DNA of 64,000 bases from a virus. Both the position numbers and the translations under genes were made by a program. Each line of letters starts with the position of its first letter. Position 1 is the stretch's first letter. The stretch lies in the IMG/VR virus record IMGVR_UViG_3300022752_000030, positions 32,001 to 96,000 of that record; one strand, given 5' to 3'. Below the pieces are notes generated by a model, which was given only the letters and a program-made list of their open reading frames with translations, made no database searches and was not told the DNA's origin. Positions 13,333 through 55,329 of the stretch are shown here, in pieces.

Positions 13333-13349
13333 CTTTCATAATAAAAAAA

Positions 13350-13826: not shown

Positions 13827-14338
13827 ACATTATTTTTATTGCTGATTGCTTCCCTTAGCGCTTTTTCGATTAATTGATTGAATGTGATATCCAGTTTGTG
13901 TGCTAGTTTCATATATTCAAAAAGGTCGTCATCTGAAAATTCAATTTCCATTTGAATACGAGTATCGTATTTTTCATTAGAAATAATCGCTCGAGCTTTC
14001 TCCAACCAATCATGTTCGACAGTCAGATCGATATATTTAACTTCATCCCATGCAGTATCGTCCAGACCTTTAGCATCCTTTTCACGAGCATAAGCATCAA
14101 CATATTCAGGATGAATCAGGCGATATGAGCGATCATGGGTATAATCACAAACATCTACCTCATAGACGATTTGTGTGTTGGTATCAAATACAATATTAGC
14201 ACTCCAACCACCTTCACCGTGGAGTCCATTCCATGAGGTTAAGTTATATGCATTTTCACCATAACAGTTCCATTGAAATTTATCGCCTTCTGTAATACGA
14301 TAATTAATTAATTCCATGAATGTTTTCAACTGTATCAT
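13823..14338 (-). CDS. hypothetical protein
   Basis: 171 aa ORF with GGAG RBS; possible C-terminal ribbon-helix-helix. Confidence 0.7.
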   Translation of the reverse strand: MIQLKTFMELINYRITEGDKFQWNCYGENAYNLTSWNGLHGEGGWSANIVFDTNTQIVYEVDVCDYTHDRSYRLIHPEYVDAYAREKDAKGLDDTAWDEVKYIDLTVEHDWLEKARAIISNEKYDTRIQMEIEFSDDDLFEYMKLAHKLDITFNQLIEKALREAISNKNNV

Positions 14339-14362
14339 AATATACTCCTAATAAAATTTTAT

Positions 14363-14437
14363 TGGTACCGAGTAGTGGGATTGAACCACTGACCAACGCC
14401 TTATCAAGACGCTGCTCTACCGCTGAGCTAACTCGGT
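14363..14437 (-). tRNA. tRNA-Ile(GAU)
   Basis: GCGTC-TTGATAA-GGCGT, CCA end. Confidence 0.92.
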
Positions 14438-14442
14438 AAAAG

Positions 14443-14518
14443 TGGTGGAGGATGACGGGATCGAACCGACGACCCCCTGCTTGCAAAGCAGGTGCTCTCC
14501 CAGCTGAGCTAATCCCCC
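14443..14518 (-). tRNA. tRNA-Ala(UGC), host-like
   Basis: GGGGGATTAGCTCAGCTGGGAGAGCACCTGCTTTGCAAGCAGG...TCCTCCACCA; G3:U70 pair. Confidence 0.96.
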
Positions 14519-14524
14519 ATTATT

Positions 14525-14650
14525 TTACCTACCTTGACCTCTGTATTTTTTAACTTTTTTTCTTGTTTTATTTAAAGTACTTGTTTTACTTCCGTTCTGA
14601 CAAGTCTTTTTGTGTACTGCTGTGTGTCCGGTATTTGTTTTTACGCTCAC
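14525..14650 (-). CDS. small basic peptide (41 aa) ending KKYRGQGR
   Basis: AGGAG RBS, GTG start; MSVKTNTGHTAVHKKTCQNGSKTSTLNKTRKKVKKYRGQGR; below the ORF-track cutoff. Confidence 0.7.
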   Translation of the reverse strand: MSVKTNTGHTAVHKKTCQNGSKTSTLNKTRKKVKKYRGQGR

Positions 14651-14668
14651 TTCAACTCCTTATAAAAT

Positions 14669-14744
14669 TGGCTCCTCGACCTGGGCTCGAACCAGGGACC
14701 TACGGATTAACAGTCCGGTGCTCTACCAACTGAGCTATCGAGGA
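14669..14744 (-). tRNA. tRNA-Asn(GUU)
   Basis: CGGA-CTGTTAA-TCCG, CCA end. Confidence 0.95.
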
Positions 14745-14778
14745 ATAATCATTATTCTATCTATATATGTTTATATTT

Positions 14779-14853
14779 TGGCGGTCCCAAGGAGAATCGA
14801 ACTCCTAACATCGGCGTGACAAGCCGAAATTATAACCATTTAACTATGGGACC
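14779..14853 (-). tRNA. tRNA-Asp(GUC)
   Basis: TCGGC-TTGTCAC-GCCGA, CCA end. Confidence 0.92.
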
Positions 14854-14858
14854 AAAAA

Positions 14859-14943
14859 TGGTGGAGAAGATTGGGATCGAACCAATTGTGACAAAAGTCG
14901 GAAGATTTACAGTCTCCTGCCATACCATTACGGCGGCTTCTCC
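14859..14943 (-). tRNA. tRNA-Tyr(GUA)
   Basis: GGAGA-CTGTAAA-TCTTC, long variable arm, CCA end. Confidence 0.92.
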
Positions 14944-14948
14944 AAATA

Positions 14949-15025
<77 letters not shown>

Positions 15026-15031
15026 ATACGT

Positions 15032-15110
15032 TACCATATAAAAACACATTGGATTGCCTACTGCTAAAATGTACCGGACTCGGTTTTTTGCAATGTGTTT
15101 TTATATGGTA
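15032..15110. repeat. 20-bp perfect inverted repeat overlapping the tRNA-Glu 3' end
   Basis: TACCATATAAAAACACATTG (15032-15051) and CAATGTGTTTTTATATGGTA (15091-15110). Confidence 0.9.
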
Positions 15111-15181
15111 CACCGTAGCGGATTCGAACCGCTGTGAATGCCGTGAAAGGGCACTATCCTAGGCCTCTAGATGAACGGTGC
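15106..15181 (-). tRNA. tRNA-Glu(UUC)
   Basis: GTGCC-CTTTCAC-GGCAT, CCA end. Confidence 0.92.
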
Positions 15182-15238
15182 ATAAAATACAATCCATTTT
15201 TTAATGAACAATGATTGATTTCTCAATCGATAGTACGT

Positions 15239-15289
15239 ATTGTACACGAATTAAAATGATTGTCAACACCTGTGTTGTTTTTTTACAAC
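15239..15289 (-). promoter_or_regulatory. sigma70-type promoter with upstream palindrome
   Basis: TTGACA-16 bp-TACAAT, preceded by GTTGT-N6-ACAAC. Confidence 0.65.
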
Positions 15290-15297
15290 TTGTTTTT

Positions 15298-15387
15298 TGG
15301 CGGTGCGACTGAGATTCGAACTCAGAAGCCGGTGTTAACCGACCGAAGGATTAGCAATCCTCTCCAATACCGTTATGGGACCGCACC
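15298..15387 (-). tRNA. tRNA-Ser(GCU)
   Basis: AGGA-TTGCTAA-TCCT, long variable arm, CCA end. Confidence 0.92.
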
Positions 15388-15514
15388 ATTGAAATGCTTT
15401 AACATTATCGGCTATTGAACAATATTTTCCTATTTGAATTTTTGTTCCTTCACCCCATTGAAAAATAGCTATGTGATTTGATCCATAAGTGTGATCACCA
15501 CATATTAATGACAT

Positions 15515-16024
15515 TTAAATATTTTTCCATTTGATTGGTGTTGATACTATCGGCAAAGCAGGATTTCTAAATTCTTCAAGTATTTCCCACAGATGTTCGG
15601 AAATTGCAAACTTAGTTAATAATCCAGATTCACGTCCATAAGCATCAATTTCCCACGGATGGGACCAATATTCAACTTTATCGGAATCTATTTTTTCTCC
15701 GCGCCACATAGAGAGTTGATCATTCGTTTCATTGAACGCAAATTGCTTTAAATGCACCATTTCGTGAGCCAAAGTTTCGAGTATTCTCCTCGCACCTATT
15801 CCTGGATGCAACTCTATTAAAAAATCTCTAGCTTGTTTTGCGGTATTATAATCTTCAACCAGACAATAACCATATTCTTGTAATTTTCCATCAAAACGAA
15901 TTTTGACAGAACAGTTATTTCGTATTCTGGTATTTTTGATTAATTCTTTTGAATAAAAAGAAGCGGCTCTTTCAACAAATGGTTTAAAGTCTTTGTCTGG
16001 ACAATTAAATACTTTAATTTGCAT
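15515..16024 (-). CDS. HExxH zinc metallopeptidase (SprT-like)
   Basis: TLAHEMVHLKQ and PWEIDA; CTAAATA at 16071-16077. Confidence 0.75.
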   Translation of the reverse strand: MQIKVFNCPDKDFKPFVERAASFYSKELIKNTRIRNNCSVKIRFDGKLQEYGYCLVEDYNTAKQARDFLIELHPGIGARRILETLAHEMVHLKQFAFNETNDQLSMWRGEKIDSDKVEYWSHPWEIDAYGRESGLLTKFAISEHLWEILEEFRNPALPIVSTPIKWKNI

Positions 16025-16079
16025 CTGACAACCTTTAAAATAACTGTTAAAATACTTAACACTCCTAATCTATTTAGAA

Positions 16080-16457
16080 TTATTGAATTTTTGTTCCTAA
16101 TTTCGCATCCCGATAAATGGTGGTGGTATGAATTAGTTCGGGTCTAAAGTATTCTTTTAATATATCAGTAACAACACTTTCGTCATATTCTTTACACGAA
16201 AAAACATCCAGATATAAGTCACCAGTATTATCCAAAAAATGACCCATAATATTTGAAGTTTCAATTAGTTGAATGACGGTCCATCCTGCTTTGTCTGTAC
16301 CATCAGCAAAATGAACAAGCTGAGGTTCACCGTAGGGTACCATATCAATTCTTTTAACTAAATCTTTTGTAAAATTTTTAATGTACAAAGAATCTTGTGC
16401 CTTATATCGATCACAATTTTTAGCATCTAACATCAGATGTTTTCCCCAATGCATCAT
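16080..16457 (-). CDS. speD: S-adenosylmethionine decarboxylase
   Basis: WGKHL, QLIETSNI(MGH) pyruvoyl site, YLDVFSCK. Confidence 0.8.
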   Translation of the reverse strand: MMHWGKHLMLDAKNCDRYKAQDSLYIKNFTKDLVKRIDMVPYGEPQLVHFADGTDKAGWTVIQLIETSNIMGHFLDNTGDLYLDVFSCKEYDESVVTDILKEYFRPELIHTTTIYRDAKLGTKIQ

Positions 16458-16945
16458 ATCTTTTTAACCTCAATTCCTGCTTTTTCTAGAAAATTTAGAC
16501 CACTTTCGTCCCTATAAGAATTTCTATAATAGAGAGAGTTAATACCTGATTGATAAACTAATTTTGCACATTCAATGCAAGGTGCATGTGTAACAAACAT
16601 TATCGAGTCTTGACCAGATTCATTACTTTTTGCTAACTTTGCAATTGCATTACTTTCAGCATGAATCACTTCTGGTTTTGTTTTGGTACCGTACCAAGCA
16701 TTTTTATTTGGACACCACTTCCAACCTCTCATGACAAAATTATTAGAACCTAATTCTGGATTATCTTTCGTCCATTCAATAGTTTCACAATCATTGTCCC
16801 AACCAGCTGGCGTTCCATTATAACCAATAGAAATGATACGATTATCTTTTACGATAACAGCACCAACTTTTAATCTTTTAGCTGAAGATAACTTACCGAA
16901 CCTTTCGGCAGTATCCATGAACGCTTCAATCCATTTTTGTTTCAT
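16454..16945 (-). CDS. cd: dCMP deaminase
   Basis: GYNGTP, HAE, PCIEC; ATG at 16945 overlaps the upstream stop (TAATG). Confidence 0.92.
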   Translation of the reverse strand: MKQKWIEAFMDTAERFGKLSSAKRLKVGAVIVKDNRIISIGYNGTPAGWDNDCETIEWTKDNPELGSNNFVMRGWKWCPNKNAWYGTKTKPEVIHAESNAIAKLAKSNESGQDSIMFVTHAPCIECAKLVYQSGINSLYYRNSYRDESGLNFLEKAGIEVKKI

Positions 16946-17124
16946 TACCATCTTCCATCATCAATGATGAGTCGAATCCAAAAAGGACCAAAATAAATTG
17001 CATTTTCAAAAACATAGCAATCAGAAGGAAATTCTTTCGTCCTATCTCTAATCCATTCGAATCTCCAGTGAAAAGGATTTAACACAAATCCAATCCAAAG
17101 TCCGGAATATTTTAACCATTTCAT
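16945..17124 (-). CDS. Trp-rich hypothetical protein (59 aa)
   Basis: MKWLKYSGLWIG...NPFHW...IIDDGRW; overlapping start/stop codons on both sides. Confidence 0.7.
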   Translation of the reverse strand: MKWLKYSGLWIGFVLNPFHWRFEWIRDRTKEFPSDCYVFENAIYFGPFWIRLIIDDGRW

Positions 17125-17309
17125 TTGATGAACTCCAAACTATCTTTTCGGATATAACGAACTGGAGTTTTATTTTGTGGTGTTTTTATGACAGGAAGAA
17201 AAGCAACACCATCAATCTCTTTGATTTCCCAATTCGAATAGGTAAAATATTCTTCCTGATTCGTGCGGACACGAACTTTTTTTAATACAGGTACTTTAAT
17301 GTTTTTCAT
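17121..17309 (-). CDS. hypothetical protein
   Basis: ORF just downstream of a sigma70 promoter; EIDGV.F motif. Confidence 0.6.
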   Translation of the reverse strand: MKNIKVPVLKKVRVRTNQEEYFTYSNWEIKEIDGVAFLPVIKTPQNKTPVRYIRKDSLEFIK

Positions 17310-17318
17310 AATGAATAA

Positions 17319-17356
17319 ATTATACAAAAAAGAAAGGGCTCTGTCAAGAGCCCTAT
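17319..17356 (-). terminator. intrinsic terminator overlapping a sigma70 promoter
   Basis: GGGCTCT-TGAC-AGAGCCC-TTTCTTTTT; TTGACA spans the loop, then 17 bp, then TATAAT. Confidence 0.8.
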
Positions 17357-17358
17357 TT

Positions 17359-17436
17359 TTATTTACCTTTGTTTTGGAATTTTTCAGGATTATTTAACTG
17401 ATCCCATTCCTCATCGGATACAGGCCACCAGTTCAT
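17359..17436 (-). CDS. mini-ORF (25 aa)
   Basis: MNWWPVSDEEWDQLNNPEKFQNKGK; ATGA overlap with the hsp20 stop; ends just before the terminator. Confidence 0.5.
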   Translation of the reverse strand: MNWWPVSDEEWDQLNNPEKFQNKGK

Positions 17437-17879
17437 TTTTCTTCCTTAATGGTAATTTTTTTGATAGCGTCTTGAGCTTTGATCATGTTCTCCAGCCAAA
17501 CCTTGAGCATACCATTTGCCAATTCTGCATCTTTAATTTCAACTTTATCAGCCAAAGTAAAAGTGCGTTCAAAAGAACGATTTGCAATGCCTTTGTATAG
17601 GTAATCACTTTCAGTATCATCTTTTGTTGCACCTTTGATGATAAGTTTATTACCCTCTAAAGTCATTTCAATATCAGATTTTGCAAATCCAGCAACAGCC
17701 ATTTCGATAACATATTTGTTATCTTTGACTTGTTTGATATTGTATGGAGGATACCCAGCGACTTTTGCAGATTGTTCTGCAATTTTTTTAAGTGTGTCTA
17801 GGGTTTGATCGAAGCCAACCGTGAATGGTTGAAATTGACCGAAAAGGTCTTTACCGAATACATCTTTCATGTATGTCAT
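17433..17879 (-). CDS. hsp20: small heat shock protein Hsp20
   Basis: YPPYNI, AVAGF, KGIA.R.F.R.F.LAD, NGML. Confidence 0.95.
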   Translation of the reverse strand: MTYMKDVFGKDLFGQFQPFTVGFDQTLDTLKKIAEQSAKVAGYPPYNIKQVKDNKYVIEMAVAGFAKSDIEMTLEGNKLIIKGATKDDTESDYLYKGIANRSFERTFTLADKVEIKDAELANGMLKVWLENMIKAQDAIKKITIKEEK

Positions 17880-18000
17880 TTGTTTCTCCTTAAAAAAGCG
17901 AAAAAGTTTTTAAAAAATCCAACCTAAAAAGCGTTGGACCGAGTAATTTATTACTAGCCTTAACCTCGGCACTGCTAGTTCCCATCCCTGAGAATATAAT

Positions 18001-18008
18001 TATTTATA
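18001..18008 (-). promoter_or_regulatory. T4 late promoter TATAAATA
   Basis: Exact consensus upstream of the hsp20 leader. Confidence 0.7.
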
Positions 18009-18009
18009 A

Positions 18010-18423
18010 TTATTCAGTATCTTTTTGTGGTTTTTTACCGATATTATATTTCGGAATTAATTGCCACTCAGACTTTTCTTTATGTGAAATAATTTTAATT
18101 TGAGACAAGAAAATAGGAACTGGATTTTCCGTTTGTTCTTTTCTCACAATTTCAATTAAACCCCAATCTTGTAATAAGTTTACAATAGCATTTCTTCTTG
18201 ATAAATCATTTTCAGAAATATCTGTTGGTTTTCCGTCTAATGCAAACAATTCTTTAAAGTGTACAATATAATATTGTCCTCTTTTGTGTAAAATATGGCA
18301 TGACTGATACAACATCTTTTCTTTTTTAGAAGCGACACCAATTCGTGTTAACGTTTCACGAACTTTTAAAAAATCATCTTTTTCTTTAAGTTTTACCTCA
18401 ACTAAGTCTTTAATTTCTAGCAT
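18010..18423 (-). CDS. regA: translational repressor RegA
   Basis: DDFLKVRETLTRIG, QSCHILHK, HFKELF.LDG. Confidence 0.97.
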   Translation of the reverse strand: MLEIKDLVEVKLKEKDDFLKVRETLTRIGVASKKEKMLYQSCHILHKRGQYYIVHFKELFALDGKPTDISENDLSRRNAIVNLLQDWGLIEIVRKEQTENPVPIFLSQIKIISHKEKSEWQLIPKYNIGKKPQKDTE

Positions 18424-18811
18424 TATTCTTGACTCCGCCTTTGTCTGTTTTTATTTTTATTTCAGCGATCTGTTCATCTGTGAGAATACTTAAAGCTTCC
18501 TTGGCTTTAGTATTAGAATAACCAAAATAGGTTTTCACAACGTCAATATTCTCGTCAACTTTAGATTTTTGCCACGGTTGAAATTTCCGTTTCATAGGTC
18601 TAATACTATTTAGAAGATATTGGTATTGCATGTCTTTATCTAGACTCGGCCATCTGTTCATTTCGTTGGCATACAAAACACAATCCAAATGATAAGACAA
18701 GGCACGGTTAACCAAGAAAGGATGATAGTCCTTTAAATCTAACTCATCATAGATTACAGATTTTTTAGTTGTGAGTATGGATGGAATAATTTCTTTGAAC
18801 AGGTCAGGCAT
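18410..18811 (-). CDS. gp62: clamp loader small subunit
   Basis: Y.PFLVNR.LS, ANEMN, YFGYS..KA; synteny. Confidence 0.9.
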   Translation of the reverse strand: MPDLFKEIIPSILTTKKSVIYDELDLKDYHPFLVNRALSYHLDCVLYANEMNRWPSLDKDMQYQYLLNSIRPMKRKFQPWQKSKVDENIDVVKTYFGYSNTKAKEALSILTDEQIAEIKIKTDKGGVKNNARN

Positions 18812-18812
18812 A

Positions 18813-19415
18813 TTAATTCATCCATTGCGTTATATCTTGTTTGTTAATTCTCTTTATATACTTCTGAGAAATAGAATCTTCTTTTTTTCTAGAATCACTA
18901 AAGTCATCGGCTTCTGCAAGATTTAAATAAGGTAAACGACCAAACATTTTTTGATATTGATAAATTTGTTCACTCTCAACCAATGATAGTAAATTTCTCA
19001 TACCAACTGCTGGAACATGACTTTTTGGTATTAGAAGTGCAATATAAAAAGTCTTTTCTGAGGTAGTGTCCTCACTATACAAACTGTGATATAGTTCATA
19101 CTTTCTCTTTTCAGAACCAAAATTACCATTGGGATTACTGAACCTAGGTAGATGTTGTTTCATTCTTGCATGTGGTGCAGTAGTCAAAGAAGGCTCTCTG
19201 TGTGCTTCTTTCCTATCTGCTGTATAGTTATCTTTTAGACCCCCAGCCATACCAAAATAAAAAGTTTCCTCTAACATGAAAGGCCATTGGTTCTGTGGTG
19301 GCATAGAATCCAACCAAGAAAAAGCATATACAACACTTGTCAAGTTTTTTGTGTAATCATAAACTTTTTCTTTTGTTGTCCAAAAGAGATTCATATTTTC
19401 GTTTGTATAAATCAT
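18813..19415 (-). CDS. GIY-YIG-like nuclease
   Basis: VVY...YFG...ARMKQH...ESEQI...LPYLN follows the GIY-YIG motif order. Confidence 0.5.
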   Translation of the reverse strand: MIYTNENMNLFWTTKEKVYDYTKNLTSVVYAFSWLDSMPPQNQWPFMLEETFYFGMAGGLKDNYTADRKEAHREPSLTTAPHARMKQHLPRFSNPNGNFGSEKRKYELYHSLYSEDTTSEKTFYIALLIPKSHVPAVGMRNLLSLVESEQIYQYQKMFGRLPYLNLAEADDFSDSRKKEDSISQKYIKRINKQDITQWMN

Positions 19416-43828: not shown

Positions 43829-44605
43829 TTAGTTCAAGAAGAATTCTAGTGGAGCACCATAATTCTTTTCCATTTCAGCTTCTAATCTTTCAATTTCATT
43901 GACCGCTTCTTGATAGATTTTATCACCATTTAAAGTAACACCACCTGGAAGTTGCATACCAGCAAACTTCTTTAGGTTATTACCCCAAGTTCTTTTGATT
44001 AATTCTGTGGCATATTCTTTTAACCAACGATCATTCCAAACTTTTGAATAAACATCGGGATTAATAACCGCATAACATTCTGCAATTACTACTGTTCCTG
44101 CTGGTGCTTCTGATTGACCCCAAGCCCAATCAATATACAGTCTTTGCATATGTCGTTGAAATCGTATAGGAACTTCACCCGTAAACATTAATTCTAAAGA
44201 ACGTAAATGTTGTTGTGTTAACGTGTAGTTGATATATGATGCAGACGTAAAATCATACAATTCGTTTAATCTAAGTTGATATCTTAAATCAAACATATTA
44301 ACTGTTGACTGTGAATCTGAGATTGGAAATATACGAGTAACACCAACAATTTCCATTGCATTGTTGGCTTCATCTTTAGATTCACTCAAGTCAAGATACT
44401 TATTTGTTATATCTTGTTGTTGAACTGCTTTGATGTAATATACTTTTTGTAGACCATCAAAATGGTAATCTTGCCAGTATTGCAAAGCATCGTCAATACG
44501 ATCTTCTATTTGATCATCATCAACGTTAATTTCAATAACTGGAAAACCTAGTCTTCTTAAACAATAGTCTTTAAAAGTATATCTGTCGGTAATTGGATTT
44601 GCCAT
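43829..44605 (-). CDS. gp13: neck protein
   Basis: YCLRRLG.PVIEINV, LPGGVTLNG; TATAAATA at 44634-44641. Confidence 0.95.
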   Translation of the reverse strand: MANPITDRYTFKDYCLRRLGFPVIEINVDDDQIEDRIDDALQYWQDYHFDGLQKVYYIKAVQQQDITNKYLDLSESKDEANNAMEIVGVTRIFPISDSQSTVNMFDLRYQLRLNELYDFTSASYINYTLTQQHLRSLELMFTGEVPIRFQRHMQRLYIDWAWGQSEAPAGTVVIAECYAVINPDVYSKVWNDRWLKEYATELIKRTWGNNLKKFAGMQLPGGVTLNGDKIYQEAVNEIERLEAEMEKNYGAPLEFFLN

Positions 44606-44636
44606 GACGTTATTTACCCATAGTTTTATTGGCTAT

Positions 44637-45896
44637 TTATATTCTCAATTGTCCGGGTAGTCTAGGCATGCCGTCTTTAATTGCAACTAACCATGCGGAT
44701 GTAACACAAACATTTAAATTTTTCATCCATTCGTTTGGAAAATACGTTTCTTTTCTGTATTCTTGAAATCTAATTGTTTTGTTATCTATAAAATTTGCTA
44801 GATATGCATCTGTGTAATACAGAAAACTATTTTCGTTCCAGTAACTTACATGTGTTGGATCTTGAAAAGCGCCACGACCATCTGTACTAGGAACCTCAAT
44901 AAATGTCCAACCACCTGGTGCCAAAACACGATGTATCTCAGACATTATTTTTGTTTTATCTGTTAAATGTTCCAAAATATGACTTGCATTTAATACACCA
45001 ACAGAATTGTCAGGTAAAGGAATTCCTTTATTTAAATCGTATACAATATCAGCATCAGGTCGTAAATCAACAGAAATGTAATTTGGATATGGATTCAAAC
45101 CACCGCCAATATCTACCTTTAAAAGATTTCTATCGAGTGCATCTTTTTCTGCCAATTCTCTTGCATATTGATTAAACAATTCTTTTGTTTTTATTTGAAT
45201 TGCTTCATTTCTGGCTATGAATGTGTTGTCTCCAGTAATTCTGTAAAGATAAAGAACTTTTGGTATTCTGACCATTTTTGTTTTTAAATAAGTTCGAATA
45301 CACAATTCGTGATCATCACAAATAGAAAGTTCTACATTATGGCCACCCAACTCTTTATATACAGATGTTCTCCATGATCTCACGTGATCTGGTGCCCACC
45401 AAATATATCCTAAACTATGACTGGTGGGCTCAAAACTATTCATTGCAATAAGTTTTTTTCCTTTCCATTCAAAATCTCTGTAAGTCCATCCATATTCTGA
45501 TCCGTAAGGAATAAAATTATCTTCCATGTGCAACATTGCATCATCACTATAAACAAAACCAACATCTGGATTTTGATAGGCTTTATACAATTCTTCTAAA
45601 CAATCCGGTGTGATAATGTCGTCATGATCCAATTCGACAAGAACATCTCCTGTTCCACTATTAAAGGCCGCATTTTTAACTGCACCGACATTTGTATTTT
45701 TTTCTTTTGCACAAATGATTACAACACGGTTATCATTTTTAATTTTTTCTGGTATGTGTTGCGGTGTGCATTTGTTGTTTAGATAAAGAATCCATTCCCA
45801 ATTCTCATAGGTTTGATTACAAATACTTTCGTATAATTCTACTAAAAAAGGAATGTTTTCTGGACTGTGTTCTGGAGTTATTAAACTAAATTTCAT
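44637..45896 (-). CDS. GT2 glycosyltransferase fused to SAM-dependent methyltransferase
   Basis: ELDHDD DxD, CDD, then DIGGG, HILEH, RVLAPGG, DPTH. Confidence 0.85.
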   Translation of the reverse strand: MKFSLITPEHSPENIPFLVELYESICNQTYENWEWILYLNNKCTPQHIPEKIKNDNRVVIICAKEKNTNVGAVKNAAFNSGTGDVLVELDHDDIITPDCLEELYKAYQNPDVGFVYSDDAMLHMEDNFIPYGSEYGWTYRDFEWKGKKLIAMNSFEPTSHSLGYIWWAPDHVRSWRTSVYKELGGHNVELSICDDHELCIRTYLKTKMVRIPKVLYLYRITGDNTFIARNEAIQIKTKELFNQYARELAEKDALDRNLLKVDIGGGLNPYPNYISVDLRPDADIVYDLNKGIPLPDNSVGVLNASHILEHLTDKTKIMSEIHRVLAPGGWTFIEVPSTDGRGAFQDPTHVSYWNENSFLYYTDAYLANFIDNKTIRFQEYRKETYFPNEWMKNLNVCVTSAWLVAIKDGMPRLPGQLRI

Positions 45897-45898
45897 AA

Positions 45899-47620
45899 TT
45901 AATCAAAGAAAAATAAATGTGTTAATCTTCCGTCTTCTATTCCTTGACCAAAATAAGGTCCGGCCGAATGTATGCATCGTGCATCCATAATGACGAGTCT
46001 ATTGTATATATTTGCTGCTGAATCCGTCACATCAAATTTTGTGCTGTCATAGAAACCTCCAGCAAAAGCACCGGACGAATCATTATCCGTTGAATGTCTT
46101 GTGCCGTTAAGTTTTGATTGATGTAATCTGGTACCACTTTCTAAAGGCGCATTTGGAGTTAAATAAATCATTGCGGCCCATTTTTGTAAATCGTAGTGAT
46201 AAACTTGTGGATCTTCTGCTGTTGTTATTTGAAAACAACCATTATAATCATGATTTTCAAAATTGAAAATTTCTTCACCAATAATTTTTTCAAAAGCTTC
46301 TTTGAGTCCTTTGGGTCTATATGGTACAACCGAACGTAATCCTTTGTACCAACGAATGTCTGATTTATATTCAACATTCAGTGCAAATTCTCTTACTTCG
46401 TCCGGATTTTGATAAAAATTATCTACGATAAAAAATCTTTTATTTGTGTTGGTGTTGATAAAGAAAGGTAAAGAATTTTTGTTTTCTTCTTCTACTTTTT
46501 GTTTTGCTAACTCATGCAATTTCTGAACTCTGCCTGTAGGACTATCATGATATAATGACGTATCAATCATCACGACAAACCTAGGAAATACATTTGTTCT
46601 TTCTGGTTGCATCATTCTTGTGGTGCAACTCAACATACTTTTGTAATCACCTAAATTGTTATATATTTGAGCCAAAGCAAAAAGGTGATCGTTTCTTTCT
46701 GGAGCAAATTTTTCAGAAAGATTATAAGTGTTTATCGCATTGTTTACATCACCAATAAAGTTATAACATTCTCCTGCAAAAAATAATGCCATGTAACACA
46801 TTTCATCAACTTCATTTTCGCCAATTTGTACTGGAAATTTAGTAGATTGTTTGTGTCTTACAAATTCTTCAAAGTAATATATCGATCTTTTTGCGTATTC
46901 TTTTTTTTGCGTTTCACCTAATGGAAATGAACTTGATTGGTATGCGTCCGTATAACTTTTACCAATGTACCAAAAATGATACAAGTCAGTAGTAAATGAT
47001 TTTTCTTTGATCATTTTTTCTTCAAGAATCAAAGCGTCACTAATAAATTTTACAGGATTTGACCAACTCTGACCCTCATTGTATCCAACTTGTCTAAATT
47101 TTGGTGACAAATCGATTCTTTCAAAGTTTTCACCAATACCTTCAATATCACAATAAACTGTTTCGTGACAAGTATCGTGATTGAATCTCCAGGGAAGATT
47201 TGCGTTCCACATCCAAGCTCTATGATAAATGCATGTACCACTTACTGCTGGTATGTGAAAAGCTTGTGTGTTTTTATTTTCTAGTGGTGACCAGTCGAAA
47301 TCGTCATCAATTTCTAAAACTTCATCACAATCCATTTTTAAAATCCAATCGCAACCGTGATCTGTTTTTTGGCAGTATTGAATCAAGTGGTCACGATTCC
47401 ATCCGAAACCAACCCAACCTTCTTCTACATCATACAATTCACCTGAAAGTTTATTGTTGATTAAAAAATCTTTGACTATTTGGTCTGTACCATCAGTTGA
47501 TCCATTATTCTGTAATACATAATAATCAACATATGGTAAACAAGAATCTAACATTCTTTTGATAACCGATGCTTCATTTTTAAACATTGTTATCATTACA
47601 ATTTTACAATTTTTCTTCAT
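45899..47620 (-). CDS. GT2 glycosyltransferase + TPR + 2OG-Fe(II) oxygenase-like fusion
   Basis: KNEA...GSTDGT...DCDE...HE; TPR-like helices; C-terminal VDNFY.NPD...HYD...HSA...RL. Confidence 0.8.
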   Translation of the reverse strand: MKKNCKIVMITMFKNEASVIKRMLDSCLPYVDYYVLQNNGSTDGTDQIVKDFLINNKLSGELYDVEEGWVGFGWNRDHLIQYCQKTDHGCDWILKMDCDEVLEIDDDFDWSPLENKNTQAFHIPAVSGTCIYHRAWMWNANLPWRFNHDTCHETVYCDIEGIGENFERIDLSPKFRQVGYNEGQSWSNPVKFISDALILEEKMIKEKSFTTDLYHFWYIGKSYTDAYQSSSFPLGETQKKEYAKRSIYYFEEFVRHKQSTKFPVQIGENEVDEMCYMALFFAGECYNFIGDVNNAINTYNLSEKFAPERNDHLFALAQIYNNLGDYKSMLSCTTRMMQPERTNVFPRFVVMIDTSLYHDSPTGRVQKLHELAKQKVEEENKNSLPFFINTNTNKRFFIVDNFYQNPDEVREFALNVEYKSDIRWYKGLRSVVPYRPKGLKEAFEKIIGEEIFNFENHDYNGCFQITTAEDPQVYHYDLQKWAAMIYLTPNAPLESGTRLHQSKLNGTRHSTDNDSSGAFAGGFYDSTKFDVTDSAANIYNRLVIMDARCIHSAGPYFGQGIEDGRLTHLFFFD

Positions 47621-48327
47621 AATGTTCTCTGTTGTATAAATTTTAAAATTTCAGGATCATTTTTTTGATCTTCAGTTGGAGCATATAATGCTCTATTTCT
47701 AGTATCTATAACACCTCCAGGTTCAACCATATAGTACATTGCAATACTTTTTCTATAAACTCCTTCAGGACATTTAATAGGATCATTAAATCCGTGCCAT
47801 GAATTTTGTGAAGTGTCAAATAACAAAGCACGATTAAATTTATTTTCAATCGTTATTATTTTTTCTTTTGGTAAATTTGTGGTACTATCGTGTGACCAAA
47901 ATTCAAGATTGCCTCCCCAATTGGTATTCCAATCTGGTGTCAGGTAAAAAATTAAATTGAATTTTCTTAGTAGATTTAATTTTGGATGCATCGAATAATC
48001 AAGATGCACATTTAGTTTACTGTCTTTACCCTGAATGTGCCAACCAGAACCGTGAAGTCCTAAATCTGGATATACTTTATTTGTACCTGTTATATCTTGA
48101 ATTTTTTTTATAAATTCCGATGAATTTAAATATTGAAAAAATTGATATGTTTTTGGTGGAAAAAAATACCAATTATTACTTGCTTTTTTGATTTCAAGTG
48201 GATTGTTGTAAACAAACCAATTAGGTGAATTATAATCTATAAATTCTTCTGATAATTGTTTTGCGTGATCGTGTTCTAAAAAATTATCAATCACATAATA
48301 TTTGAAAGGTGAATCACCAACAATCAT
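47617..48327 (-). CDS. 2OG-Fe(II) oxygenase
   Basis: HLD...WGG.LE...FNR...SWHG...RKS. Confidence 0.88.
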   Translation of the reverse strand: MIVGDSPFKYYVIDNFLEHDHAKQLSEEFIDYNSPNWFVYNNPLEIKKASNNWYFFPPKTYQFFQYLNSSEFIKKIQDITGTNKVYPDLGLHGSGWHIQGKDSKLNVHLDYSMHPKLNLLRKFNLIFYLTPDWNTNWGGNLEFWSHDSTTNLPKEKIITIENKFNRALLFDTSQNSWHGFNDPIKCPEGVYRKSIAMYYMVEPGGVIDTRNRALYAPTEDQKNDPEILKFIQQRTL

Positions 48328-48899
48328 TTCCACTTAGGACCTTCAAACCATGCAGCAATACTATATCTGGTTCCTTTTGTTACCGGATATGCTCTGTGTC
48401 TTAACATTGAGGGAAAGAAAATGATTGAGCCTTGCTCCTTTGTTTCTTTTGAATCCAAAGGAGTGCCAGCATCTGTAATTTCGAAATTGCCACCTTCGTA
48501 ATCTTTTGGATCAGAAAGTTGAATTATACAAGATAGTTTTCTATGATATAATGGATCATTATTCATCCAAAAAACGTCATGATGTTCTTTATATTCACCG
48601 AAATAACTACTATCATATTCAGCCAATTGAACAAAATTTAAATGTGTGATGTGTATATTAAAGAAATCTTTATTCGCTTGTATACCTGTTTTCCACAACA
48701 AATCAAAAAGGTAGGTGAATCTCCAGTCTGAAGAATTGATAAATTTTACTTTACTCTTTCTTATACTGGAGTCCACTCTACCATTATCATTTAATCCAAC
48801 AACAGCATCTTGTGTAGGTATTGCATTTGCATCACGGATAATTTTTTCACAAGTCGCTTTATCAATATACGATTTAAAATAACACCACTCACCATTCAT
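48324..48899 (-). CDS. 2OG-Fe(II) oxygenase (prolyl hydroxylase-like)
   Basis: HHD...RKLS...YEGG...FPS..H...PVTKG.RYS..W. Confidence 0.9.
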   Translation of the reverse strand: MNGEWCYFKSYIDKATCEKIIRDANAIPTQDAVVGLNDNGRVDSSIRKSKVKFINSSDWRFTYLFDLLWKTGIQANKDFFNIHITHLNFVQLAEYDSSYFGEYKEHHDVFWMNNDPLYHRKLSCIIQLSDPKDYEGGNFEITDAGTPLDSKETKEQGSIIFFPSMLRHRAYPVTKGTRYSIAAWFEGPKWK

Positions 48900-48917
48900 A
48901 AACAAACTCCTAAAAGA

Positions 48918-50003
48918 TTATAATTTAGATTTTATATATTCAATCTGTGATTTTTGTTCTTTTAATGCTTGTACTAATAATGGAACAATTTTTTCATACA
49001 TAACAGTCAAATATTTTTCACCTGATTTACTATTTCCATATTTATCAGTGTCAAAAGGAGCAATTGCGGTTGCTTCAGGTAAAACAGATTCAACTTCTTG
49101 TGCAATTAAACCAATTTGTGGGCCGTCAATAGTAACACCAAGCTCTTTAGCTTGTTCTGTAAATTCATAATAAACGCCATTTAATTGTTGAATTTTTTCT
49201 AGAGAATTTTCAATAACACCAGAAATATCTTTCAATCTTTTATCTGAATAATTCGCTACAATATTTCCTGTAGCTCGGACACTACCAGTTGGACCTGCTA
49301 CGGTATTTACACCCAATGCAGCAACTTGAGTTACTGCACCGGAAGAACCACCTGTCGGACCTGTTGGACCTGTTGGACCTGTTGGTCCAGTTGGACCTGT
49401 TGGACCACTTGTTCCTGTTGGACCTGTTGGTCCTTGAACGCCTTGAAAACCTTGTAAACCTGTCGCAGCTGCAGGACCTGTAGGACCTTGAGCACCTGGT
49501 ACACCAGTTGGTCCAGTAGAACCTGTTGCACCAGTAGAACCTTGAGCACCTTGTCTACCTTGGAAACCTGTAGCACCTTGAGTACCTGCTGCACCTTGAG
49601 CACCTGGTACACCAGTTGGTCCAGTAGAACCTGTTGCGCCAGTAGAACCTTGAGCACCTTGAAAACCTTGAGCACCCTGAACACCAGGAACTCCAATAGA
49701 ACCTTGAACACCTGTTGGTCCTGTTGGTCCTTGAACCCCTTGTAAACCCTGAGCGCCTTGAGCACCTTGAAAACCTTGAGCTCCTTGAACACCAGAAACG
49801 CCTGTTGCACCTTGAGCGCCTGGTACACCAGTTGGTCCTTGAGTACCTGTAGCACCTTGAACGCCCTGAGCACCTTGTGAGCCCGCTAAACCTTGTGGTC
49901 CTTTAATGCCGGATTGTGGTCCAATCCAATTACCATTAGAGTCTAAAACATCTGTTGAACCAACAGTTAGTCCGTTTTTAACGATGAAATTGCTTGTTGC
50001 CAT
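48918..50003 (-). CDS. collagen-like fibre with peptidase S74 intramolecular chaperone
   Basis: About 60 Gly-X-Y triplets; YS|DKRLK; GLIAQEV. Confidence 0.9.
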
Positions 50004-51097
50004 TACTTACCTCTATTTTCTAATTTTGTTAGTAACGCAGAAATTTGTTTCTGTTGTTCTTTAATTGCTTCGATCACAATAGGAACAACCTTTTCATACT
50101 GAACTGTAAGATAATTTTCTCCAGTTTTACTATTTCCATTTGCGTCAATATCAAAAGGAGCAGGCGAAACAATTTCAGGTGCTGAAGTTTTAACTTGTTG
50201 TGCAATTAAACCCACTTGTTTACTATAATCATTGTAACCAAAACTTTCAGCCAATTTGCTCTGAGTGTAATAAATTCCACTCCACGCTTGAATTTTTTCC
50301 AAACAATTTTCTATTGTACCTGAAATATCTTTCAATCTTTTATCGGATGCACCAGCCGTAATATTTCCTGATGCTTGAATTGTGCCTGTTGGGCCTACAG
50401 CAGCATTGATGCCTAAAGCTGAAACGTTTGGTGTTGATGTTGTGCCTCCACTTGCTGAAGGACCTTGAGGTCCTTGTGGACCTGTTGGTCCTGTACCTCC
50501 TTGTGGACCTGTTGGTCCTGGAGAACCTTGTGGACCTGTTGATCCTGCACCACCTTGTGGTCCTCTAGGACCTTGTGCTCCAGTTCCACCAGTTGGCCCA
50601 GTTGGTCCCTGAGCACCTTGGAAACCCGAAGCACCTTGAGCACCTACTGGTGATGAACCTTGTGGACCCTGTGGACCTTGAGGTCCTGTAGCACCTTGAG
50701 CACCTGTTGCACCTTGAGCACCTTGGAAACCCGAAGCACCTTGAGCACCTACTGGTGATGAACCTTGTGGCCCTTGAATGCCAGCAGCACCTTGAGCACC
50801 AGTTCGACCTTGTGGACCCTGAGCACCAGTAGCACCCTGCACGCCTTGAGCACCTATTGGTGATGAACCTTGTGGCCCTTGAGTACCAGCAGCACCTTGA
50901 GCACCTTGAAAACCAGTGGCACCTTGAGCGCCTTGGAAACCAGAAGCGCCTTGATCACCAGCAGAACCTTGAAAACCTGTTGGTCCTTGAACACCTTGAT
51001 AAGAAGATGCTGGACCAGTCCAAGTTCCACTTGAGTTAATGACATCTGTTGATCCAACAGTTAGTCCGTTTTTAACGATGAAATTGCTTGTTGCCAT
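50003..51097 (-). CDS. collagen-like fibre with peptidase S74 intramolecular chaperone
   Basis: Gly-X-Y tract with three GSSP interruptions; AS|DKRLK. Confidence 0.9.
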
Positions 51098-51098
51098 A

Positions 51099-52295
51099 TT
51101 AGTTCAAAGCTCCTTCTAATTGTTCTATTTCTTTTTGTTGTTCTTTAATCGTTTCAACAATTAGAGGTATTAATCTTTCATACTGAACTGTCAAATAAAA
51201 CTCACCTGTTTTACTGCCATTTCCCTCTGTTACATCAAATGGAGCAGGCTTAACAATTTCAGGCATAACTTTTTGAACTTCTTGTGCAATCAAACCAACT
51301 TGATTTTTATAATTATTGTAACCAAAAATTTCAGCTAACTTATTTTGTCTATAAAATACACCGTTTAATTGATATAATTTTTCACCTGCATTTTTAATTG
51401 TTTCGATATTATCTTTAAGTCTAATATCGGAATAACCTGCTATAATTGATCCTGTGGCTTGTAATGTACCTGTTGGACCTGCTGCAATATTTACACCAAG
51501 AGCGGTTGCTTGAGTACCCAATGAACCGCCAGTGCCAGATGGACCTTGTGGTCCAGTACCTCCAGGTGAACCTGTTGGGCCAGTACCTCCAGGTGATCCT
51601 GTAGGACCTTGGGCTCCTGGTACACCATTTGGTCCTGGTGAACCTGTTGGTCCTGTTGGACTCGTTGGACCTGTAGGGCCTGTACTTCCTGCTGGTCCTT
51701 GAGAACCTTGTGGTCCTGTTGGTCCTGTTGCTCCAGTCACACCGGTTGTACCAGTACCTCCTGTTGATCCTTGAACACCAGCTGGTCCTTGAACACCAGC
51801 TGGTCCTTGAGAACCTTGTGGTCCTGTTGGTCCTGTTGCTCCAGTCACACCAGTTGTACCAGTACCTCCTGTTGATCCTTGAACACCAGCTGGTCCTTGA
51901 ACACCAGCTGGTCCTTGAGAACCTTGTGGTCCTGTTGGTCCTGTTGCTCCAGTTGTACCTTGAAAACCTGCTGGTCCTTGAACACCAACAGTTCCTTGAG
52001 TTCCCTGTGGACCTGTTGATCCTTGAACGCCGGCTGGTCCTGTTGGTCCTGTTGCACCAGTTGTACCTTGAAAACCTGCTGGTCCTTGAACACCAACAGT
52101 TCCTTGTGATCCTTGAGCGCCCACAGTTCCTTGTGAACCCTGAGTGCCGGATATACCCGAAAAGCCTTGCGGACCTTGAGCGCCCGCAAGACCTTTCACG
52201 TTGGATTGTGATCCTATCCAGTTACCTGAAGAATCTATGACGTTTGTTGTTCCAACAGTTACGCCATTTTTAACGATGAAATTTGAATTAGCCAA
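51099..52295 (-). CDS. collagen-like fibre with peptidase S74 intramolecular chaperone
   Basis: TTG start after GGGGAG; Gly-X-Y tract with about 108-bp tandem duplications; YS|DIRLK. Confidence 0.9.
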
Positions 52296-52331: not shown

Positions 52332-54848
52332 TCAAACAGCGATTAATGTAGCAACAATTTTCGCAGTTGTTGTACTGTTTGTTGGAGTAAACAATACATT
52401 CAAATTACCAGATGTGATTGATGCATCAAAAGTTCCTAATGATGAACCAGACTTAACTTCACCGTATTGTGCAACGTATGCTGTTGTACCATCGTGAATA
52501 ATATTTAATTCAATCATATGATAAGAAGAACCACTTGTCATTTGTGCCAATATTTTTGCTGAGCGATATGTTGCTATTGCAAAAGAAAATGCTGTAACTT
52601 GTGATGTTGTAGAAGTCGTATATGATGTTGAAGTCATATATGAACTTGTATTGATAGTTACAGATGTATTGGATGACAATGCAGAAGCATAAATTGGGCT
52701 GTTAGATGAAATTGCACCAGTTACTACACCACCAGATTTTGCTAAAGAATTTGTTGTTGCAGTATTAGCAGCAGCAAATGCAGAGTTAGCATAAGAACCA
52801 GCTGTTACTGCTTTGGAGTCTGCTGTAGCTGCATTAGTTGTAGCAGTATTTGCTTGAGCATATGCAGAGTTAGCATAAGAACCAGCTGTTACTGCTTTAG
52901 AATCAGCTGTATTAGCAGCAGCAAATGCTGAGTTAGCATAAGAACCAGCTGTTACTGCTTTAGAGTCTGCTGTAGCTGCATTAGTTGTAGCAGTATTTGC
53001 TTGAGCGTATGCTGAATTTGCATAAGAACCAGCTGTTACTGCTTTAGAATCAGCTGTATTAGCAGCAGTAAATGCAGAGTTAGCTTGAGTGAATACTACG
53101 TTAAGTTGTGGTGTTGAAGCTATGTTAACTTCCGAACCAGTTGGTCCCATAACAAAAGTACCGTTAGTTTCATTCCAAACGACACGAACATTTGGTTGAT
53201 CGCCACGAATAACTTGGAAACCAGAATATGTTCTAGATACGCCTGAACCAGACTCACCTTTATTTAAATCGATGATGTTATCATCAACGTTTAAGTTTGT
53301 TGTGTGTACAGTAGTCGTTGTACCATTGATTGTTAAATTACCAGTAATCGTTGCATCACCAGTAACAGTTTGATTGCCAGAAATTTGTACTGTTGGTGCA
53401 GTCAATGTAACTTGTGTATTGGAAGTAATTCTTGCTAAAGAACCTAATCCTGATGCTTCAACAATAACATCACCGTTTTGACCTGTTGTTTGAATTCTTG
53501 TTGTTGAATTTGATGTTAATGTAATATTACCTGTACCATAAGTTTGTAATTGTATACCTTGATTTGTATTAGCGGTAAAAGTAATATTTTCAGCACTAGA
53601 TCCTAAAACTGGACTACCATCAACATAAAGAGTATTTGCACCAAGGTGTAAGTCGTTTGCATAGATACTTGCAAATTTTAAAGTTGGTGATCCAATATTT
53701 GTTGTATTGCTTGTTTTTGGTAAAATATTACCATTAACTGTAACTGTACCACCAATTGTACCACCTGATGTTACAAATGTATTTCCTACGTTAGCAGCAG
53801 CATATGCAGAGTTAGCATAAGAACCAGCTGTTACTGCTTTGGAATCAGCTGTAGCTGCATTGGTTGTTGCTGTATTAGCTTGACCATATGCAGAGTTAGC
53901 ATAAGAACCAGCTGTTACTGCTTTGGAGTCTGCTGTATTGGCTGCTGTATATGCAGAGTTAGCATAAGAACCAGCTGTTACTGCTTTGGAGTCTGCTGTA
54001 TTGGCTGCTGTATATGCTGAATTTGCATAATAACCAGCTGTTACTGCTTTGGAGTCTGCTGTAGCAGCATTAGTTGTAGCGGTATTTGCTTGATCATACG
54101 CAGAATTGGCTTTTGTAAATGCTGGAGCAATCTGTGGTGCCACGTTATTAGCTGCAGCAAATGCTGAGTTTGCAACATTAAATGCTGAGTTAGCATAAGA
54201 AATTGCACCCAAATCAACATAAGTATTTCCGTTACCGTCAACGCCTGTAATATTATTTAATACTTCCAACATTGCTGGACTAATTTGTGCAACGTTTGAA
54301 GATAATGTAGAAACAGTATTTGTTAGTGAAAGAAGGTCAGTTTGATAAGCTAATGTTCCACCATTTACAGATAAACGATTGTCTGTGTTTGCAACTGTCA
54401 AACCACCAATAACAACTGTATTTGAAGCATTAACTGTATTAACGCTTAATTTTCTTGTGCTAAAAAATACAGCTGTACCAGTAATTGCTTCTGTTAATAA
54501 GACTCTTGCTGTATTGTTATTTACAATTTCAATATTAGCAACTTGTAAATTATGATTGGCATCATATACAAAAAAACCTAGGTCAGAAGAACCTAGGTCG
54601 TGTGTTACTGTCCAGGTATTGGATGCAACACCTTGTGTGTGCAAATATGCTGATTGTGCGGTACCAATTGGTTGCCAAGTCCAATAATTGCTACCGTAAT
54701 TTAATTCGGTGTAAATGTATGGCGTTCCTTGTTGTACAATAATTGTTCTTGGTGCTGGATTTGCTGGAAAACCATTATAATCCGTTTCGAAAATTAGGCC
54801 GGCTGTTAGATTCAAGCCTCCTAAAACTCTAATTTGATTTGATGCCAT
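52332..54848 (-). CDS. tail fibre-like structural protein with Ala/Asn coiled-coil repeats
   Basis: ADSKAVTAGSYANSA repeats; C-terminal YRSAK...IHDG...YG domain. Confidence 0.8.
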   Translation of the reverse strand: MASNQIRVLGGLNLTAGLIFETDYNGFPANPAPRTIIVQQGTPYIYTELNYGSNYWTWQPIGTAQSAYLHTQGVASNTWTVTHDLGSSDLGFFVYDANHNLQVANIEIVNNNTARVLLTEAITGTAVFFSTRKLSVNTVNASNTVVIGGLTVANTDNRLSVNGGTLAYQTDLLSLTNTVSTLSSNVAQISPAMLEVLNNITGVDGNGNTYVDLGAISYANSAFNVANSAFAAANNVAPQIAPAFTKANSAYDQANTATTNAATADSKAVTAGYYANSAYTAANTADSKAVTAGSYANSAYTAANTADSKAVTAGSYANSAYGQANTATTNAATADSKAVTAGSYANSAYAAANVGNTFVTSGGTIGGTVTVNGNILPKTSNTTNIGSPTLKFASIYANDLHLGANTLYVDGSPVLGSSAENITFTANTNQGIQLQTYGTGNITLTSNSTTRIQTTGQNGDVIVEASGLGSLARITSNTQVTLTAPTVQISGNQTVTGDATITGNLTINGTTTTVHTTNLNVDDNIIDLNKGESGSGVSRTYSGFQVIRGDQPNVRVVWNETNGTFVMGPTGSEVNIASTPQLNVVFTQANSAFTAANTADSKAVTAGSYANSAYAQANTATTNAATADSKAVTAGSYANSAFAAANTADSKAVTAGSYANSAYAQANTATTNAATADSKAVTAGSYANSAFAAANTATTNSLAKSGGVVTGAISSNSPIYASALSSNTSVTINTSSYMTSTSYTTSTTSQVTAFSFAIATYRSAKILAQMTSGSSYHMIELNIIHDGTTAYVAQYGEVKSGSSLGTFDASITSGNLNVLFTPTNSTTTAKIVATLIAV

Positions 54849-55305: not shown

Positions 55306-55329
55306 GGAGGGAGATTTTACTCTCCCTCC
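55306..55329 (-). terminator. intrinsic terminator
   Basis: GGAGGGAGA...TCTCCCTCC hairpin after the 55353-57023 gene. Confidence 0.7.

Follow-up and report, generated by a model that had tools for sequence, protein, structure and literature searches.

We have analysed a window of 64,000 nucleotides (positions 32,001 to 96,000 of the IMG/VR record IMGVR_UViG_3300022752_000030), which forms part of a 111-kb viral contig, ~67% complete, of an uncultured T4-like phage from water. Seven consecutive genes of this window (Table 1) appear to constitute a fibre-plus-tailoring cassette, in which three collagen-like fibre chains (col1, col2 and col3) are followed by two stand-alone 2-oxoglutarate (2OG)-Fe(II) oxygenases (oxy1 and oxy2) and two fusion proteins, one joining a GT2-family glycosyltransferase (GT) to a TPR domain and a third oxygenase (573 aa), the other joining a second GT2 domain to a methyltransferase (419 aa). 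Judged from sequence, at least part of this enzyme set probably acts mainly on the collagens; our confidence in any particular residue or sugar is much lower. The phage probably decorates its own fibres, since these directly precede the enzymes and related phages gain and lose both together. The whole cassette forms one co-oriented run within the late structural region.

An earlier note on this DNA, made from the sequence alone, had proposed that the block hydroxylates, glycosylates and methylates virion collagen fibres, and the distribution of both components across T4-like genomes favours such a linkage. Searches of viral contigs anchored on each of the two fusion proteins (80 loci each) showed that collagen-S74 genes precede the enzymes, usually as a triplet, wherever enough upstream sequence is available. 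Dozens of viral contigs show the same order of three collagens, oxy1, oxy2, GT-TPR-oxygenase, GT-methyltransferase and gp13, at enzyme identities down to ~50%. Rearranged lineages occur as well, one with a collagen gene followed by GT-methyltransferase, oxy2 and split GT-TPR and oxygenase genes, and another with collagen, fusion, GT-methyltransferase, oxy1 and gp13, and a minimal set consists of collagens, a stand-alone DUF6445 oxygenase and the GT-methyltransferase; all the rearranged cassettes keep a collagen gene near the enzymes. Among 185,579 prokaryote species (one genome each), the GT-TPR family gave three matches, all in low-GC contigs of metagenome-assembled genomes that resemble phage DNA, and the two contigs long enough to show a neighbour both have a collagen open reading frame beside the enzymes.

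A control search anchored on gp13 alone retrieved the nearest relatives whatever their enzyme content. In most of them, the region upstream of gp13 is without collagens and enzymes alike, and the collagen-free relatives have other fibres, some of them non-collagen S74 fibres, and no enzymes. With duplicate gp13 sequences removed and collagen absence called only where at least 8 kb of upstream sequence was available, 28 scorable contigs had both traits, 21 had neither, five had collagens only and none had enzymes only, a further 70 contigs being not scorable. When the 55 scorable rows are placed on a gp13 tree, the enzymes require at least 13 changes of state and the collagens at least 12, and even close sisters can differ in both traits, as do L086, with three collagens and the enzymes, and L195, which has neither. 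Comparison of phylogenetically independent pairs showed the collagen state following the enzyme state about five times, opposing it in no case and remaining unchanged about three times.

Profile and structure searches placed the enzymes among protein-modifying kinds, namely prolyl-hydroxylase-like oxygenases and a SunS/ThuS- and SgtA-like GT, in agreement with the role assigned to them by the earlier note; in NCBIfam, none of the four enzymes had a match above the cut-off. All three oxygenase domains belong to the prolyl-hydroxylase-like branch of the 2OG-Fe(II) oxygenases. Pfam identified 2OG-FeII_Oxy_3 in oxy1 (57 bits) and oxy2 (58 bits) and DUF6445 in the 573-aa fusion (24.7 bits). The HxD...H iron triad and the 2OG-binding Arg were invariant in alignments of 30 (oxy1), 36 (oxy2) and 16 (DUF6445) diverse homologues from related contigs, and because of this invariant centre all three domains are likely active. 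The oxy1 profile matched the PKHD-type proteins PiuC and Sbal_3634 (1e-10), followed more weakly by a Chlamydomonas prolyl 4-hydroxylase (1e-4) and by P3H1, and that of oxy2 matched the ribosomal-protein prolyl hydroxylase OGFOD1 (4e-14) and then the HIF prolyl hydroxylases; a Dictyostelium PHD (6T8M) was among the profile matches of both. The DUF6445 domain had no match among PDB sequences in single-sequence and profile searches and was placed by fold search only, its AlphaFold model (predicted local distance difference test score, pLDDT, 89.6) matching OGFOD1 (Z 14.3), PHD2, PiuC and a Pseudomonas prolyl 4-hydroxylase. This predicted fold assigns the domain to the prolyl-hydroxylase-like branch, not to a substrate.

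As regards the glycosyltransferases, Glycos_transf_2 was detected in both the 573-aa (34 bits) and the 419-aa (58 bits) fusions. The TPR region of the former gave a weak Pfam match (E 0.002), and its AlphaFold model confirmed a helical-repeat domain matching TPR structures. In the model of the N-terminal 385 residues (pLDDT 90.8), a GT-A domain is followed by eight helices, and the two together matched the peptide glycosyltransferases SunS (Z 21.2, root-mean-square deviation 3.1 Å, 274 residues) and ThuS (Z 20.0) over both domains; the next structural family (Z 16.7) matched the GT-A domain only, and the helical part alone matched TPR structures at Z ~13. The DxD motif is invariant in GT-TPR homologues, and in some related phages this part is a separate protein of ~370 aa. 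The modelled architecture thus supports a peptide glycosyltransferase of the SunS/ThuS/SgtA type, for which transfer to a peptide is predicted. The 419-aa fusion combines an ordinary GT2 domain with a class I methyltransferase domain (Methyltransf_11, 35.6 bits against a cut-off of 21.2). The four enzyme proteins appear soluble, as no membrane-spanning segment was found in any enzyme of the cassette. Longer forms of the GT-TPR-oxygenase (P0035, P0047, P0087 and P0097; 770–1000 aa) bear an extra Methyltransf_24 or rhamnosyl-O-methyltransferase-type domain, so methyltransferases recur as partners of this enzyme.

The collagen nature of the three chains is supported by Pfam Collagen (PF01391) scores of 104, 74 and 100 bits for col1, col2 and col3 (cut-off 27), and each ends in a Peptidase_S74 domain (PF13884; 52, 29 and 48 bits, cut-off 22) opened by a Ser-Lys dyad in the motif SDIRLK or SDKRLK. 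The motif SDxRxK is kept in 65 of 70 related collagen C-termini, and an S74 domain with an intact dyad fits a C-terminal trimerisation unit that is cut off, which would leave chains of 288, 250 and 252 aa. Triplet counts also agree with the composition given in the earlier note, that is, mostly Gln and Thr at Y and Pro chiefly at X, as its description of a terminal S74 chaperone agrees with the Pfam scores and the Ser-Lys motif. Across the chains, Gln occupies 32–55% and Thr 22–37% of the Y positions, and X is mostly Pro, Ala, Ser or Val; each chain has 16–25 Pro at X and one to four at Y, Pro standing at Y in 4.6% of triplets. The triple-helical parts contain no Asp, no Glu and a single Lys in 195 triplets, and the collagen regions have neither Cys nor Gly-Pro-Pro. 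The start codon of col1 is TTG, behind AAGGGGAG. The three chains of one genome are nearly equal in length (median spread 2.7%, for window positions 48918–52295 and loci L003 to L096), and mean chain length ranges between genomes from 254 to 795 aa, with pairwise length correlations of 0.95–0.98. Such matching fits a heterotrimer, or a fibre set that needs equal lengths.

The composition of the accompanying collagens gives some indication of which chemistry fits. Where a cassette includes oxy1, the median Pro content of its collagens is 31% per triplet (under 5% in 2 of 49), against 9% where oxy1 is absent (under 5% in 7 of 16), and collagens with less than 5% Pro accompany oxy2 in three cassettes and DUF6445 in eight, this comparison of proline with enzymes being confounded by phylogeny. 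Pro at Y is almost confined to carriers of oxy1 (raw p 0.001); as oxy1 has just four changes of state on the tree, we take this tie as a lead, not as a test. Collagens with 0–2% Pro are found with oxy2, DUF6445 and GT-TPR too; oxy2 and DUF6445 are therefore not solely collagen prolyl hydroxylases, and the prolyl hydroxylation proposed earlier would hold at most for oxy1. One such proline-poor collagen belongs to Synechococcus phage DSL-LC02 (L353, record positions 44755–51199), a cultured freshwater cyanophage that encodes it among its tail-fibre genes, next to a mannosyltransferase, an FkbM methyltransferase and a DUF6445 protein labelled methyltransferase in the record. It has one Pro in 116 triplets, with Thr or Ala at X and Gln or Thr at Y, and DSL-LC02 could serve as a bench system.

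Other compositional marks fared less well. Neither Thr nor Gln at Y sets cassette-linked collagens apart. No relation appeared between Thr at Y and the presence of GT-TPR. Gln at Y was rejected as a discriminator of cassette-linked collagens: in a collagen-anchored search, the nearest relatives carry the cassette and the more distant Gly-X-Gln collagens, of which there are many, mostly lack it within 8 kb. Lysine chemistry of the kind exerted by animal LH3/PLOD3 or mimivirus L230 was likewise rejected, as most cassette-linked collagens have 0–1% Lys, and the analogy fails because the substrate collagens are virtually without lysine. Nor is the pathway self-contained, as had been suggested: the block has no sugar-activation genes, so it needs UDP-sugars of the host, together with host 2OG, iron and S-adenosylmethionine (SAM). 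It is conceivable, if doubtful, that the conserved core (the DUF6445 oxygenase and the GT2-methyltransferase, often with oxy2) modifies the collagen without involving proline or lysine, either by hydroxylating another residue of Gly-X-Gln/Thr or by building an unusual methylated glycan. If so, this core chemistry would represent a third, undescribed way to stabilise or coat a triple helix, widespread in aquatic phages.

Several observations weigh against the collagens as the substrate. The sign test on independent pairs was underpowered, with a median p of 0.06 limited by the number of pairs, and neighbours in a hypervariable, recombination-prone fibre region could be gained or lost jointly without cooperating. 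The same Gln/Thr make-up is found in collagen-S74 fibres that lack the cassette, among them those of the T4-like loci L309 and L320, in which a collagen-S74 gene directly precedes gp13, so that fibres of this kind do not in general depend on the enzymes. Some collagen-free relatives carry an oxy1-like gene by itself near gp13, and small-molecule oxygenases (SnoN, BesD-type) score within ~1–1.3 Z units of the OGFOD1 match of DUF6445. Cyanophage S-SSM7 has a distant DUF6445 relative (29% identity) in a glycan-synthesis island with an epimerase and a UDP-glucose dehydrogenase, and a TPR-DUF6445 protein of S-SCSM2R lies beside nrdAB. In contigs L057 and L062, the two glycosyltransferase genes of the cassette stand beside thyX and ribonucleotide reductase, with no collagen in 54–62 kb; we rejected both as collagen-free carriers, given that they are fragments only 31–37% complete which are also without S74 and neck genes, and they show non-adjacency. 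In some phages, the GT genes or a distant DUF6445 relative thus lie elsewhere than beside collagens.

Bacterial chromosomes add a further point on the same side, as oxy2 homologues were found on the chromosomes of 19 of 301 Bacteroidota genomes with no Gly-X-Y gene within 1.5 kb at the loci examined. Homologues of oxy1 occurred in three of the 301 genomes, none next to Gly-X-Y genes and one adjoining a TPR-protein-methyltransferase fusion, and DUF6445 was rare (3 of 401 genomes). An adjacency of enzymes and collagens in bacterial chromosomes was consequently rejected for Bacteroidota, the one phylum searched, at 300–400 genomes. Five of these loci (L252, L255, L257, L258 and L259) carry strong oxy2 homologues (E ~1e-60); four have SAM methyltransferases of the TylF, Methyltransf_23 or Methyltransf_11 types as neighbours, and the fifth a GT2, which suggests a conserved hydroxylase-methyltransferase pair on the chromosome.

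Among other explanations, the enzymes might glycosylate or hydroxylate other virion proteins, such as the capsid, the tail or the Ala/Ser/Thr-rich upstream fibres, with the collagens not being their main target. The placement in a late operon would suit any structural target, a neighbouring fibre (52332–54848) is rich in Ser and Thr, and mycobacteriophage glycosyltransferases have been taken to act on capsid proteins, according to work cited in PMC11256854. Yet the enzymes are also missing from collagen-free relatives whose core virion genes are the same and whose non-collagen fibres are similar, and they lie directly behind collagen genes in several different arrangements; we regard this explanation as unlikely. 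A second view, also unlikely, is that during infection the enzymes alter O-antigen or other glycans of the host envelope, perhaps as a barrier to superinfection, and that their place among the fibre genes merely reflects a hypervariable island. This is the published reading for the glycosyltransferases in the host-recognition cluster of pelagimyophages, assigned to modification of the host O-antigen in the one paper that takes up such genes at this genomic position in related phages (PMC7029224), and it accords with the common function of GT2 enzymes in building polysaccharides, with the glycan-synthesis island of S-SSM7 and with the position of the L057/L062 enzymes away from structural genes. 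It is difficult to reconcile with a cassette devoid of membrane segments and of genes for a flippase, a polymerase or sugar activation, with a GT-TPR whose fold is nearest to peptide glycosyltransferases and whose family is nearly confined to phages, and with close relatives, in which a comparable region holds enzymes only if collagens are there as well. It is very unlikely that the oxygenases and the methyltransferase merely hitch-hike next to the fibres and act on a sugar nucleotide, a small molecule or a glycocin-like peptide, as might be imagined from the O-methyltransferase-type genes paired with bacterial oxy2 homologues and from the small peptides modified by SunS and ThuS, because the tightly packed block contains no small peptide gene and no sugar-synthesis gene and the association with collagen recurs across distant, rearranged lineages.

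If the collagens are the substrate, chains and enzymes would be made together late in infection, in the host cytoplasm. The GT-A and TPR domains would add a first sugar to side-chain hydroxyls of the unfolded Gly-X-Y chains, most likely to Thr in G-X-T, as SgtA does on BclA3; the second GT2 would extend this glycan and its fused methyltransferase would cap it. Oxy1 would hydroxylate proline, and oxy2 and the DUF6445 oxygenase a target other than proline, which might be another residue or the glycan itself. The S74 domains would then nucleate trimerisation from the C-terminus and cleave themselves off at S289, S251 and S253, giving chains of 250–288 aa whose 58–75 triplets would form a triple helix ~50–65 nm long. 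The likely benefit would be a triple helix stabilised in the absence of charged residues, or a fibre coated with glycan.

The arrangement of the block is as the earlier note described it: three paralogous collagen/S74 genes, two oxygenases and two fusions, directly upstream of gp13. No gap within the block exceeds 18 nt. From col1 to the GT2-methyltransferase gene, the spacings are +1, −1, +12, −10, −4 and +2 nt, and 31 nt separate the last enzyme gene from gp13. The oxy1 gene probably starts at ATG 48899 rather than at TTG 48905, the start in the open reading frame list, because AGGAG is better spaced from the former (7 nt, against 1 nt before the TTG) and oxy1 homologues begin M-x-G-E-W; the col3-oxy1 gap would then be +18 instead of +12 nt.

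Table 1. Coordinates of the cassette genes, their domains and flanking features in the window
Feature	Position	Strand	Remarks
col1, collagen-like fibre chain, 398 aa	51099-52295	-	34-aa N-terminal domain, 75 Gly-X-Y triplets, S74 from S289 (51102-51431)
col2, collagen-like fibre chain, 364 aa	50003-51097	-	58 triplets in four blocks, S74 from S251 (50006-50347)
col3, collagen-like fibre chain, 361 aa	48918-50003	-	62 triplets, S74 from S253 (48921-49247)
oxy1, 2OG-Fe(II) oxygenase, PKHD/PiuC and P4H (prolyl 4-hydroxylase)-like	48324-48905	-	H108, D110, H170, R180 invariant
oxy2, 2OG-Fe(II) oxygenase, OGFOD1/PHD-like	47617-48333	-	H110, D112, H180, R194 invariant
GT2-TPR-oxygenase fusion, 573 aa	45899-47620	-	Glycos_transf_2 and DUF6445
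GT-A (GT2) domain of the 573-aa fusion, ~aa 1-185	47066-47620	-	DxD (D97, D99) invariant
TPR-like helical repeat domain of the 573-aa fusion, ~aa 190-385	46466-47053	-	AlphaFold model, fold matches
DUF6445 domain of the 573-aa fusion, aa 386-573, 2OG-Fe(II) oxygenase	45902-46465	-	Invariant HxD...H...R
GT2-methyltransferase fusion, 419 aa	44637-45896	-	Glycos_transf_2 and Methyltransf_11
GT2 domain of the 419-aa fusion, ~aa 1-240	45177-45896	-	Pfam
Class I SAM methyltransferase domain of the 419-aa fusion, ~aa 250-419	44640-45149	-	Motif I VDIGGG
TATAAATA, T4-type late-promoter motif	44634-44641	-	Overlaps the GT2-methyltransferase stop codon, just upstream of gp13
gp13 neck protein (head-tail adaptor)	43829-44605	-	Homology

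The genes surrounding the block are all on the minus strand. In the direction of transcription, a large baseplate-type protein and three non-collagen fibre proteins precede the collagens, and the enzyme genes are followed by gp13, gp14 and gp15 in T4 order (phrog_211, PF11649/phrog_460 and phrog_227, from PHROGs, Pfam and tblastn), both terminase subunits, the sheath, the portal and the major head protein; the block thus occupies the place of wac (fibritin) in the T4 map. No similar sequence was found among isolated phages by nucleotide search, nor a close cultured relative, and gp13 shares 52% identity with its counterpart in Caulobacter phage Cr30 and 43–46% with those of pelagimyophages and Methylophilales phages. 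The motif TATAAATA has five copies in the window (18001, 33912, 35829, 44634 and 57425), all on the coding (minus) strand at gene boundaries; their total is not above chance (5 against 8 expected), and their placement resembles that of T4 late promoters. No terminator-like site with a convincing T-tail was found between a hairpin at 55306–55329 and gp13, which would fit a common late transcript of fibres and enzymes.

At the left edge of the window (3–383), far from the fibre block, there is a third GT2-family gene. Among the related loci, L250 (the contig of L111) has, at ~4160–19126, two giant Gly-X-Gln collagens, three Pro/Thr/Ser-rich proteins and then a rhamnosyl-O-methyltransferase-like protein, a sulfotransferase and a 2OG oxygenase, all upstream of the glycosyltransferase pair, and this looks like a much larger fibre-tailoring region. 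In L170 (10001–16939), two gp13-gp14-gp15 sets stand in opposite orientation, by an inverted duplication or as an assembly chimera.

Should the collagens prove to be the substrate, tailed phages would carry a compact, soluble and cytoplasmic machinery for post-translational collagen tailoring, a kind of apparatus hitherto described for animals, giant viruses and spore coats. A new reading would then apply to the many glycosyltransferases that T4-like phages of marine and fresh waters encode in their fibre regions and that are currently taken as modifiers of the host surface, and glycan coats would join the factors that shape phage adsorption. The cassette might also provide tools for the bacterial expression of modified recombinant collagens, and the system is small, since one chain and four enzymes are directly testable in E. 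coli.

In the literature, no paper was found on hydroxylase/glycosyltransferase cassettes tied to phage collagen fibres, a search on PiuC likewise gave no result, and partial parallels come from several known systems. Phage-encoded glycosyltransferases near structural genes have been taken to decorate virion proteins in mycobacteriophages (a virion-glycosylation paper, as cited in PMC11256854); there the targets are the capsid and the tail tube, whereas the present cassette has a collagen, oxygenases and a methyltransferase. Mimivirus encodes collagens together with its own hydroxylating and glycosylating enzymes, the lysyl hydroxylase/glucosyltransferase L230 and R699 (PMC9546862, PMC5802723). 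Like L230 and animal LH3/PLOD3, the phage joins an oxygenase and a glycosyltransferase in one polypeptide; unlike L230 and PLOD3, which need Lys at Y, its oxygenases are PHD/OGFOD1/PiuC-like rather than PLOD-like and the domain order is reversed. With animal procollagen (C-P4H, P3H and the C-propeptide), the phage system would share the modification of unfolded Gly-X-Y chains, followed by C-to-N trimerisation and removal of the C-terminal domain, but in the phage Pro is rare at Y, the process would be cytoplasmic, and a self-cleaving S74 would serve both trimerisation and removal. In the Skp1 pathway of Dictyostelium and Toxoplasma (PhyA, Gnt1 and PgtA), a cytoplasmic PHD-type prolyl hydroxylase is followed by soluble glycosyltransferases, including a GT2 domain, which extend a glycan on the new hydroxyl; that pathway modifies a single Pro of one regulatory protein, whereas the phage case concerns a repetitive fibre. 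The glycocin peptide S/O-glycosyltransferases SunS and ThuS (PDB 7MSN, 7MSP and 7MSK) are the best fold match of GT-TPR, over ~275–280 residues of both domains, but only 15% identical, and their substrates are small Cys/Ser-bearing bacteriocin precursors. In C. difficile SgtA, a GT-A domain (1–260) is followed by TPR (262–358), the gene adjoins bclA3, and the enzyme puts beta-O-GlcNAc on Thr of the GPT collagen repeats of BclA3 (PMC7157674). The phage GT-TPR resembles this 358-aa protein in its domain build and in the size of its stand-alone forms, and it is likewise encoded beside a collagen-like protein. It differs from SgtA and from the BclA systems, including the glycosylated BclA of Bacillus spores, in belonging to a phage rather than to a spore surface, and it is fused to a 2OG oxygenase and accompanied by two more oxygenases and a GT2-methyltransferase.

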